From an uncultured bacterium (lineage in GTDB: Bacteria; Patescibacteriota; Minisyncoccia; CAIUEV01), in assembly GCA_937952315.1 (NCBI GenBank), contig CALFZX010000016.1, forward strand, positions 14,969 to 78,968: 64,000 bases of DNA. The letters run 5' to 3'. Both the position numbers and the translations under genes were made by a program. The stretch's first letter is position 1; every line of letters starts with the position of its first letter. The notes under the pieces are model-generated. The model did not search any database, was not told the origin of the DNA, and saw only the letters and a list, made by a program, of their open reading frames with translations. Below are positions 38,473 to 41,117 of this stretch, piece by piece.

Positions 38473-38593
38473 GTCCTGGCGACGACCTACTCTCACACTC
38501 CATCAAGGGAGCACTACCATCGGCGCTGGAGGGCTTAACGGCTGAGTTCGGTATGGGATCAGGTGGATCCCCTCCGCTTCAATCGCCAAGACT
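38473..38593 (-). rRNA. rrf: 5S ribosomal RNA
   Basis: The minus strand reads GTCTTGGCGATTGAAGCGGAGGGGATCCACCTGATCCCATACCGAACTCAGCCGTTAAGCCCTCCAGCGCCGATGGTAGTGCTCCCTTGATGGAGTGTGAGAGTAGGTCGTCGCCAGGAC. It has the helix I terminal pairing, the CCGAAC loop C motif and the GATGGTAGTG loop D/E region. A 12-nt perfect inverted repeat (CAACTCAAAGTC/GACTTTGAGTTG) flanks it as a processing stem. Confidence 0.85.
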
Positions 38594-38881: not shown

Positions 38882-40385
<1,504 letters not shown>

Positions 40386-40679
40386 AGTATGATTGTTTGT
40401 TCCCTGGTCTCTAGCTTCGGAAGAACAACGTTCATCCTGAGCTAGCCCGCCTACCGGCAGGCAGGGATCAAACTCTCAATAAAAAATATAACAGTATAAA
40501 CACTGTGTGGATTGCAATCCTCGACCGAAGCCAAGAATTGCTAAAAAAAACGATTATCAAGGAAATAAATAGGTAACCGTAAAAAATCAAAAACTTAACC
40601 AGATTTTTAAGGAACTCTGAAATTTTTTCCAGTGCAACACCGAGCTAAGGTATCACACCTTATTCAAATTTGCAAATTA

Positions 40680-40708
40680 AAGTTAATGAGAGACTTTTAA
40701 ATTGTCAA
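40680..40708 (-). promoter_or_regulatory. candidate sigma70-type promoter for the rRNA transcript (TTGACA-17-TAACTT)
   Basis: The minus strand has TTGACA (plus 40703-40708), a 17-nt spacer and TAACTT (plus 40680-40685), ~290 nt upstream of the mature 16S 5' end. An AT-rich tract and the tandem repeat arrays lie just upstream. Confidence 0.3.
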
Positions 40709-40722
40709 ATATTTAAAATAGG

Positions 40723-40794
40723 GCACAAGGCACAAGGCACAAGGGACAAGGGACAAGGGACAAGGGACAAGGGACAAGGGACAAGGGACAAGGA
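40723..40794. repeat. tandem heptanucleotide array: (CACAAGG)x3 then (GACAAGG)x7
   Basis: Direct reading: ggcacaaggcacaaggcacaagggacaagggacaaggga... A perfect 7-nt periodicity over ~72 nt. Confidence 0.9.
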
Positions 40795-40813
40795 AACCGT
40801 TAGTAGCTTTTTT

Positions 40814-40906
40814 CTTGCAACTTGCTCCTTGCTACTTGTAACTTGCAACTTGCTACTAACTCCTTGCAACTTGCTCCTTGCAACTTGCTACTAACTCCTT
40901 GCTACT
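40814..40906. repeat. second heptanucleotide array (units AACTTGC/TCCTTGC/TACTAAC), approximately the inverted complement of the first array
   Basis: cttgcaacttgctccttgctacttgtaacttgcaacttgctactaactccttgcaacttgctccttgcaacttgctactaactccttgctac. The unit TCCTTGC is approximately the reverse complement of GCAAGGA, so arrays 1 and 2 can form a long imperfect hairpin allowing G-U pairs. Confidence 0.85.
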
Positions 40907-41041
40907 TTATGCATTCCAAGATCCAAGATCTACGAACCATTATCGGGCGGATCTCGACCCGCCCCTGTTTGCTCCTTGTGCCTGGCTTATTTTTTTGCTC
41001 TTTTATTTTTTTTATGATTTAAGTAATAAGTAAATTAAAAA

Positions 41042-41117
41042 GCCGAGATAGCTCAGTTGGTAGAGCATAGGACTGAAAATCCTTGTGTCCCCGGTTCGAG
41101 TCCGGGTCTCGGCACCA
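41042..41117 (+). tRNA. tRNA-Phe (GAA), CCA encoded
   Basis: GCCGAGATAGCTCAGTTGGTAGAGCATAGGACTGAAAATCCTTGTGTCCCCGGTTCGAGTCCGGGTCTCGGCACCA is a canonical cloverleaf with anticodon loop CTGAAAA. Confidence 0.9.

Follow-up and report, generated by a model that had tools for sequence, protein, structure and literature searches.

The subject of this analysis is a pair of adjoining arrays of 7-nt units (heptads) in genome G000, a member of the Patescibacteria (candidate phyla radiation, CPR; 1.05 Mb in 64 contigs, G+C 39.5%, estimated completeness 98%). The window, that is, the whole stretch of DNA that was analysed, comprises 64,000 nucleotides (G000 contig C16:14969-78968), and the arrays lie in the 655-nt gap separating its divergent 16S rRNA and tRNA-Phe genes. 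Probably they form both arms of a single copy of a dispersed repeat that is generic and has no dedicated role in rRNA expression. The repeat is, in this CPR genome, a variant of the dispersed heptamer repeats known from elsewhere, and is joined to a hairpin mini-element (hereafter the core) that appears to target heptads.

The paired array and its copies in the genome

The intergenic region was searched against G000 by using BLAST, and matches were obtained on contigs C1, C4, C13, C15, C30 (three), C38, C42, C45, C49, C50 and C52. Positions 40725-40979 recur across a dozen other contigs; the leader (40484-40720) and the block next to tRNA-Phe do not. The heptad was also looked for elsewhere in the genome, as advised in the original prediction, by scanning the whole of G000 for phase and with Tandem Repeats Finder (TRF): 23 strict CAAG/CTTG runs of at least three units were found at 15 loci, all with period 7 and none with period 5, 6, 8, 9 or 10. 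Heptad runs in total occupy about 15-20 loci on 14 contigs, mostly intergenic, and the locus beside the 16S gene is the largest, with runs of 10, 6 and 4 units. The element and its borders are composed as follows (window coordinates):

38884-40386, minus strand: 16S rRNA gene (covariance-model search)
40680-40708, minus strand: candidate 16S promoter TTGACA-17-TAACTT, outside the element, at the edge of conservation with the congener G002
40724-40793, minus strand (canonical): array 1, right arm of the module, 10 heptads (direct reading, TRF, arm comparison)
40794-40813, minus strand: loop, AAAAAA-GCTACTAACGGTTTC, of which the 15-nt loop is shared with other modules
40814-40907, minus strand: array 2, heterogeneous left arm (NNNCAAG on this strand), 13 heptads, 35-nt higher-order repeat x2.7
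40908-40970, plus strand: core copy of 63 nt, TATGCATTC-(CAAGATC)2-TACGAACCATTATC-GGGCGGATCTCGACCCGCCC (GC hairpin)-CTGTTT
40971-40985, plus strand: leftover of the interrupted heptad array past the core, G-CTC-CTTGTGC-CTGG
40992-41041, plus strand: A/T-rich block 5' of tRNA-Phe, presumed promoter, outside the element, at the other conservation edge with G002
41042-41117, plus strand: tRNA-Phe

The two arrays themselves proved real by TRF, by direct reading and by comparison with shuffled sequence: the pattern CAAG(N3)x4 has 11 matches in the window and none in 100 dinucleotide shuffles. Array 1 has the composition reported for it earlier, (CACAAGG)3(GACAAGG)7 on the plus strand and (CTTGTCC)7(CTTGTGC)3 on the minus strand, but its ends were placed one base too far out on each side. 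TRF delimits it as 40720-40793 (period 7, 10.4 copies, 95% matches, score 125). Its plus strand carries seven GGG tracts spaced by 4 nt, which satisfies the G-quadruplex sequence rule (G3N4 at least four times); array 2 and most other arrays are without GGG tracts. Array 2 is built from CTTGCAA, CTTGCTC, CTTGCTA, CTTGTAA and CTAACTC heptads, the last of these being the degenerate form (2 of 13). TRF delimits array 2 as 40814-40907 with periods of 14, 21 and 35; the 35-nt unit of five heptads is repeated 2.7 times (86%, score 139), and the terminal unit is truncated after CTT by the core. Past the core, the remainder shows 87% complementarity with the GGCACAA units of array 1.

The claim that the arrays are inverse-complementary and pair into a hairpin holds loosely. 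Their best inverted match is 27 nt at 70%, with complementarity only through CAAG/CTTG, and the pair folded as single-stranded DNA gave -24.4 kcal/mol against -19.5 +/- 2.9 for shuffles (z -1.7; equalled in 10 of 200 shuffles). The two open reading frames (ORFs) across the arrays had no Pfam match and their sequence is absent from the congener G002; on these grounds their treatment as artefacts is reasonable.

Comparison of the loci revealed a common layout, (NNNCAAG)n, A5-8, the conserved loop GCTACTAACGGTTTC and (CTTGNNN)n, in at least seven paired-array modules on C4, C16, C30 (two), C45, C50 and C52; an eighth is probable at the end of C47. The 15-nt loop has 0-3 mismatches to ACTACTAACGGTTTC across the at least seven modules. 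At the 16S locus the canonical orientation is that of the minus strand, so that array 2 makes the left arm, and the right arm (homogeneous, CTTGTCC) is array 1. An invertible spacer between the arrays was considered and rejected, there being one canonical module with a core inserted in either arm. Co-evolution of the arms was likewise rejected: as DNA hairpins the real modules gave -14.8 kcal/mol and chimeras with the arms of other modules -19.2 +/- 6.1 kcal/mol. Real modules are therefore no more stable than chimeric ones, and nothing points to selection for specific pairing between module arms.

Modules and cores lie between divergent, convergent and tandem genes, and cores in tandem contexts are sense in three cases and antisense in three. 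A stable-RNA gene adjoins only 2 of 20 loci (tRNA-Phe here, tRNA-Leu on C50), which is no enrichment; for this count tRNA-Phe was added by hand from a separate tRNA prediction, the aragorn run for the loci having omitted it.

One further locus holds a gene. At G000:C30:6098-6890 a 114-aa 23S_rRNA_IVP (four-helix-bundle) protein is encoded (PF05635, 119 bits), flanked on one side by a core and a paired-array module and on the other by a CTTG array. In G002 this stretch of ~790 nt is represented by 165 nt, and gene and arrays together look like a small cassette bounded by heptad arrays.

Turnover of the repeats among relatives

G001 and G002 belong to the same genus as G000, G003 and G005 to the same family, and G112 and G176 to a distant family; G002 is the closest relative with a 16S gene. 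The first 287 nt of the 16S gene are 100% identical between G002 and G000, the leader 95% and the block preceding tRNA-Phe 97%, against 72-80% for ordinary genes. Identity stops abruptly at AAATTGTCAAAT (the -35 TTGACA, minus strand) and, on the other side, at TTTTTTGCTCTTTTATT. Between these edges G000 has 271 nt and G002 has 165 nt, the latter made up of TTTGTAAAG units, a loop-like AAAAAGCTAACCAATAAGATTTC and (AACTTTATAAACTTTCT)n. This 8-9-nt repeat, (AACTTTATAAACTTTCT)n, has 41 matches on about 20 G002 contigs, often at contig ends (examples are C82:82-157, C131:6-114, C28 and C47); it does not occur in G000 and is rare in G001. In G002 two further orthologous sites either lack the G000 element or have it replaced, and one of the two bears traces of the G002 family. 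From these alignments, repeat sites appear to stay occupied as a rule, each species having homogenised its own unit.

The candidate promoter facing the 16S gene was correctly recognised in the original prediction (minus strand; TTGACA 40708-40703, 17-nt spacer, TAACTT 40685-40680), and its site is kept in G002; a consensus promoter scan did not call it, since its -10 hexamer has only three of six matches. The A/T-rich block at 40992-41041 is presumably the promoter of tRNA-Phe. Three roles had been suggested for the arrays. An UP element or activator array would be conserved with the promoter and specific to rRNA, but conservation with G002 ends at the -35; neither these nor a dedicated insulator are supported, given the presence of the same element at ~15-20 unrelated loci and its replacement in G002. 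A recombination-prone microsatellite comes closest, with the amendment that the arrays belong to a genome-wide, fast-evolving heptad family. The absence of the arrays from a close relative, which had been named as evidence that would tell against a regulatory role, was largely found in G002, although an array of that species' own family is present there instead.

Farther afield, five CAAG at 7-nt phase occur in G000, G001 and G005 but are missing from the 11 other genomes of the order that were scanned, G002 among them. Among 401 sampled Patescibacteria genomes 22 have such CAAG runs; a control word matches a similar number of genomes, and heptad microsatellites in general are therefore common in the phylum. 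Inverted heptad pairs were also found in G001, G005 and G112. Both G112 and G176 have many heterogeneous CAAG arrays arranged as inverted CAAG/CTTG pairs, with the units CAAGGAT, CAAGTAT and CAAGTTT, and in G176 (C13:32750-33250) five heptads lie in frame inside tsaD (PF00814, 122 bits). G003 has the hairpin only, as a REP-like (repetitive extragenic palindromic) repeat GTAC-GGGCGGGTCGCGACCCGCCC.

Some features of the rRNA genes were recorded alongside. The 16S gene is followed by a 5S gene without a 23S gene in between:

38474-38590: 5S rRNA gene, downstream of 16S

The 16S-5S unit of the window thus carries no 23S; that gene is on a separate contig (G000:C1:5395-8939) with no array adjoining, and spans 3545 nt against a 2925-position model, which indicates ~600 nt of insertions. 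At the 5' end of the 16S gene G000 has a 79-nt insertion relative to G002 (window 40387-40465), which duplicates the first ~35 nt of the gene, the upstream copy being interrupted by a ~20-nt GC-rich palindrome, gcccgcctaccggcaggcagg. A 17-mer of this palindrome is found exactly at five further G000 sites, and a long form (42 nt) occurs in the Elp3-like gene described below and also at C38:3055 and C38:9690. On these recurrences the palindrome is placed in a second dispersed GC-rich repeat family.

The core element and a candidate transposase

G000 has 11-12 core copies at 84-95% identity, and core 14-mers are the commonest words of the genome outside low complexity. The consensus is TAYGCATTC-(CAAGATC)1-2-TACGAACCATGATC-GGGCGGGTCTCGACCCGCCC-CTGTAT, with a length of 56 or 63 nt. 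The GC-rich imperfect palindrome GGGCGGGTCTCGACCCGCCC is repeated in the 11-12 cores and gives a single hairpin per core; the hairpin is flanked by GATC and CTGT, the nearest GTAG (minus strand) being 14 nt off. The stem shows only 4-5 substitutions, mostly giving G-T/U wobbles on the core plus strand, which are too few to judge covariation by. The core always lies within a CTTG-oriented array and is found in either arm of paired modules. Ten of 12 copies have junctions of the form CTTGNNN-CTT, core, N-NNN-CTTG; in these one heptad is split between CTT and G, the heptad phase is retained and nothing is duplicated. No core was found in the relatives of G000. BLAST of G000 gave no longer parent copy of the element, and there is no full-length parent insertion sequence (IS) in the assembly.

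A single gene in G000 encodes a protein resembling REP-associated tyrosine transposases (RAYTs):

C61:23333-23893 (L052:1138-1698): Y1 (HUH) transposase-like gene, 186 aa, with HMH and YIKNNP motifs

Among NCBIfam models it matches NF047646 best (REP-associated tyrosine transposase, E 4e-19). Of five related genomes, only G000 and G003 yielded Y1_Tnp; these are the two with the GGGCGGGTC..GACCCGCCC hairpin, and G001, G002 and G005 gave none. As separate observations, a GC hairpin, GGGGCAGGTCGCGACCTGTCCC, lies in frame within the transposase ORF, in a stretch of ~34 residues that the family profile does not have, and a copy of the second GC-rich repeat lies downstream of the gene.

Palindrome-associated transposable elements (PATEs) of the IS200/IS605 group and IS608-type insertions enter at a fixed point beside a short specific target, without duplication, and have a subterminal hairpin. 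The core resembles them in its fixed position at CTT^G, its lack of a target-site duplication, its subterminal hairpin and the presence of a Y1 gene elsewhere in the genome. The differences are that the target in G000 lies inside a microsatellite unit, which offers many targets per array, and that no parent IS is present in the assembly.

The following mechanism is proposed. Arrays would grow, shrink and diversify by slipped-strand mispairing, multi-unit slips included, as may be inferred from the 35-nt higher-order repeat, from cores of 56 and 63 nt and from the assembly gaps that the arrays of G001 contain. Modules would spread or be homogenised among loci through recombination or transposition. 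The core would be a small, hairpin-bearing, non-autonomous (PATE-like) element mobilised on single-stranded DNA by a RAYT-like Y1 (HUH) transposase, with CTT^G of the heptads as its target, a view suggested by the fixed short target, the lack of duplication and the subterminal hairpin. That the single RAYT-like Y1 transposase of G000 is the enzyme that moved the core into CTT^G is put forward tentatively; we hold it to be a serious candidate that falls short of probable.

An in-frame copy of the core was found in a gene on C38:

G000:C38:14402-16285: Elp3-like radical-SAM gene, 627 aa, with Radical_SAM and Radical_SAM_C domains and an upstream CX4CX2C motif

The two domains and the motif lead to the prediction that this ORF is Elp3-like. 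Its reading frame is unbroken by the core, and the orthologues (561 aa in G002, 582 aa in G001) both lack ~57-63 residues at exactly this point. The insertion consists of heptads, the core, further heptads and the second GC-rich repeat. At the same site G001 and G002 have 2-3 in-frame xxxCAAG heptads, which differ between the species and contain no core. It follows from these core-less heptads of both congeners that the core entered a pre-existing array: heptads preceded the core at this site, and in G000 the array expanded and took up the core and the second GC-rich repeat.

A bolder proposal is that CAAG heptad arrays are a functional substrate common to many Patescibacteria, either with each unit as a ready CTT^G target and block for pairing in a single-strand (Y1/RAYT-type) transposition system, microsatellite and mini-transposon co-evolving in a 'landing-pad' arrangement that could also add in-frame peptide loops to conserved enzymes (Elp3-like, TsaD), or coated by a heptad-reading protein. 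We regard this as improbable.

Alternative readings and known systems

Several observations count against a generic dispersed repeat with a transposase-driven core. Concerning the arrays, G002 too carries a tandem-array, foldback-type element between the same two promoters, which could mean that some such element is wanted at the 16S/tRNA-Phe spot. CAAG is near-invariant whereas the three bases after it vary, and this is so inside arrays as well as in distant Patescibacteria; slippage and drift are not an obvious explanation for this, and it hints at selection for protein binding or for pairing in any register. Concerning the core, its patterns gave no match in public collections (two patterns against genome and metagenome contigs, one against viral contigs). 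The transposase scores are marginal, at 68.9 bits against a curated NCBIfam cut-off of 80 and at 23 bits for Pfam Y1_Tnp, just at the cut-off, and the co-occurrence of hairpin and transposase rests on five incomplete metagenome-assembled genomes. No core copy lies beside the G000 transposase gene, and the transposase genes of G003 have no hairpins within 1.5 kb.

A sequence-independent positional role between the two promoters is possible, because the only comparable relative (G002) also has a repeat there. A rival reading makes the element a position-specific cis element of the divergent 16S and tRNA-Phe promoters, acting as a spacer, an insulator against supercoiling or read-through, a distal activator site or a G-quadruplex switch. 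It would account for the position of the element exactly between two conservation edges that are the presumed promoters, for the tandem array of a different family at this point in the one comparable congener, for the choice of this spot by the largest heptad locus of the genome and for the placing of (GGGACAA)7, which fits the G3N4 rule (at least four repeats), ~15-85 nt upstream of the -35. Against this, sequence, unit (7 versus 8-9 nt) and size (271 versus 165 nt) are unconserved beside a leader that is 95-97% identical, identical modules are placed between convergent or tandem genes and inside an ORF, and the loci are not enriched at stable-RNA genes. Two other orthologous loci also hold each species' own repeats, and ancestry with concerted turnover therefore explains the shared occupancy. 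We consider such a cis element unlikely. On the preferred reading, any effect of the generic repeat on 16S or tRNA-Phe expression, through spacing, G-quadruplex formation or blocking of read-through, would be incidental.

In another rival reading the arrays are genome-wide binding sites for a protein that would read CAAG at 7-bp spacing (omega/ribbon-helix-helix-like or nucleoid-associated), coat the arrays and shape local chromosome structure or expression. The omega (ribbon-helix-helix) operators of pSM19035-type plasmids are contiguous 7-bp units, direct and inverted, upstream of a promoter, and in G000 direct and inverted heptad blocks are likewise adjacent; CAAG keeps strictly to the 7-bp phase, and the three remaining positions vary. 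The same CAAG/CTTG inverted pairs in distant families (G112, G176) agree with this, as does the finding that the arms of a module are no more complementary to one another than to those of other modules, evidence against selection for a particular hairpin pairing. The G000 arrays differ from omega operators in being chromosomal, dispersed, variable and untied to promoters; distance and orientation to promoters are not fixed, and no candidate or cognate protein was identified. Arrays also run in frame through coding regions (the Elp3-like gene; tsaD in G176), G002 has no CAAG arrays of at least five units and uses another unit, and heptad microsatellites of other sequence are, by the control pattern, about equally common in the phylum. 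The observed/expected ratio of CAAG genome-wide is 0.99, neither enriched nor avoided. We consider binding arrays unlikely, slightly more so than the cis element.

The same ratio led to the rejection of CAAG as a word shaped by restriction-modification. As a separate observation, the tetranucleotide ACGT has 0.165 of its Markov expectation in G000, by far the lowest value among all 256 words, and this avoidance suggests pressure from an ACGT-specific restriction system.

Least likely of the three is an element at the RNA level, in which transcribed arrays fold into a long imperfect hairpin that acts as a terminator or insulator or as a target of RNase III; we doubt it strongly. The whole 273-nt element does fold as RNA clearly below its shuffles (minus strand z -5.4, plus strand z -4.3), several modules in canonical orientation end in CCTTATTTTAAA-like T-runs, and the three G000 modules that a single gene or tRNA reads into are all read in the canonical sense. 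However, part of the low z-score would arise with any purine-rich array set against a pyrimidine-rich one, the stems are 4-bp blocks interrupted by 3x3 loops, and the single-stranded DNA fold is not significant. The copy at the 16S locus lies upstream of the presumed promoter with no gene reading in, in G001 the gene upstream of one module reads into it in the opposite sense, and cores show no orientation bias (three sense, three antisense). An Rfam search of the element gave nothing at the gathering score, and at a permissive threshold only chance-level matches (E >=1.5). CsrA-type GGA sponges, Hfq ARN repeats, integron attC sites and dif were considered and dropped, the invariant part being CAAG rather than GGA and the motifs a misfit.

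The generic dispersed repeat is best compared with the heptamer repeats of Xanthomonas (GGGAATC) and Nostoc/Calothrix (GGGGAYT, short tandemly repeated repetitive sequences, STRR). These are dispersed, mostly intergenic arrays of 2 to >20 copies with 70-75 convergent inverted pairs and no known function; their positions are kept while length and sequence vary between close relatives, and in other bacteria repeats with G3 tracts form G-quadruplexes in vitro (Rehm et al. 2015, PMC4692102). G000 shares the 7-nt tandem units, the dispersed non-coding loci, the convergent inverted pairs and, in some arrays, the G3 tracts. The pattern of kept position with varying length or sequence is repeated at its 16S, C30 and Elp3 loci in comparison with G001 and G002. 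Unlike those repeats, the G000 unit consists of CAAG and three variable bases in heterogeneous arrays, of which only the GGGACAA version appears capable of forming a G-quadruplex; the paired arrays have a conserved 15-nt loop in common and so act as copies of one module; the heptads contain a separate inserted core with a hairpin; and the host is a 1-Mb CPR genome as opposed to large free-living genomes.

The core recalls the REP/REPIN-RAYT system (REPIN denoting REP doublets; PMC3116915, PMC3733652, PMC5581495) in its short GC-rich imperfect palindrome, its intergenic position in an AT-richer genome and the single-copy Y1 (HUH) gene with RAYT as best match, hairpin family and transposase being found together in G000 and G003 only. 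It differs in that there are only 11-12 copies with a single hairpin and no inverted doublet. REP palindromes carry a GTAG or CGTC tetranucleotide tag at their foot (PMC3733652), whereas the core stem has GATC and CTGT flanks and the G003 repeat GTAC. The transposase gene is not flanked by cores but has a related hairpin in its ORF and a different GC repeat downstream, and its product scores below the curated equivalog cut-off. Classical MITEs (miniature transposable elements with inverted repeats at their ends), which show target-site duplications and have a related full-length IS, differ from the module, in which the arms are heptad arrays only ~70% complementary, with no target-site duplication and no longer parent copy. 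Rickettsia palindromic elements (RPEs; PMC1779305; MITE review PMC10969869) are similar as small palindromic repeats of a reduced genome that are both intergenic and in frame in a conserved gene; there is no sequence relation, only one in-frame full copy was seen in G000, and the insertion there builds on in-frame heptads that were already present.

Very little has been described of the repeat elements of CPR/Patescibacteria, which are a main cause of broken assemblies of such genomes. The locus studied here illustrates that even a conspicuous repeat next to an rRNA promoter may be a bystander from a genome-wide family. Within one genus, the species have different dominant short-repeat families at the sites they share, a sign of rapid concerted turnover. 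The hairpin mini-element seems to take the unit of a microsatellite as its insertion target, and one copy stands in frame in a conserved gene for tRNA modification. Should the connection with the Y1 transposase be true, REP/RAYT-like biology would extend to ultra-small genomes, and a simple, testable pair of transposase and DNA substrate would be at hand.

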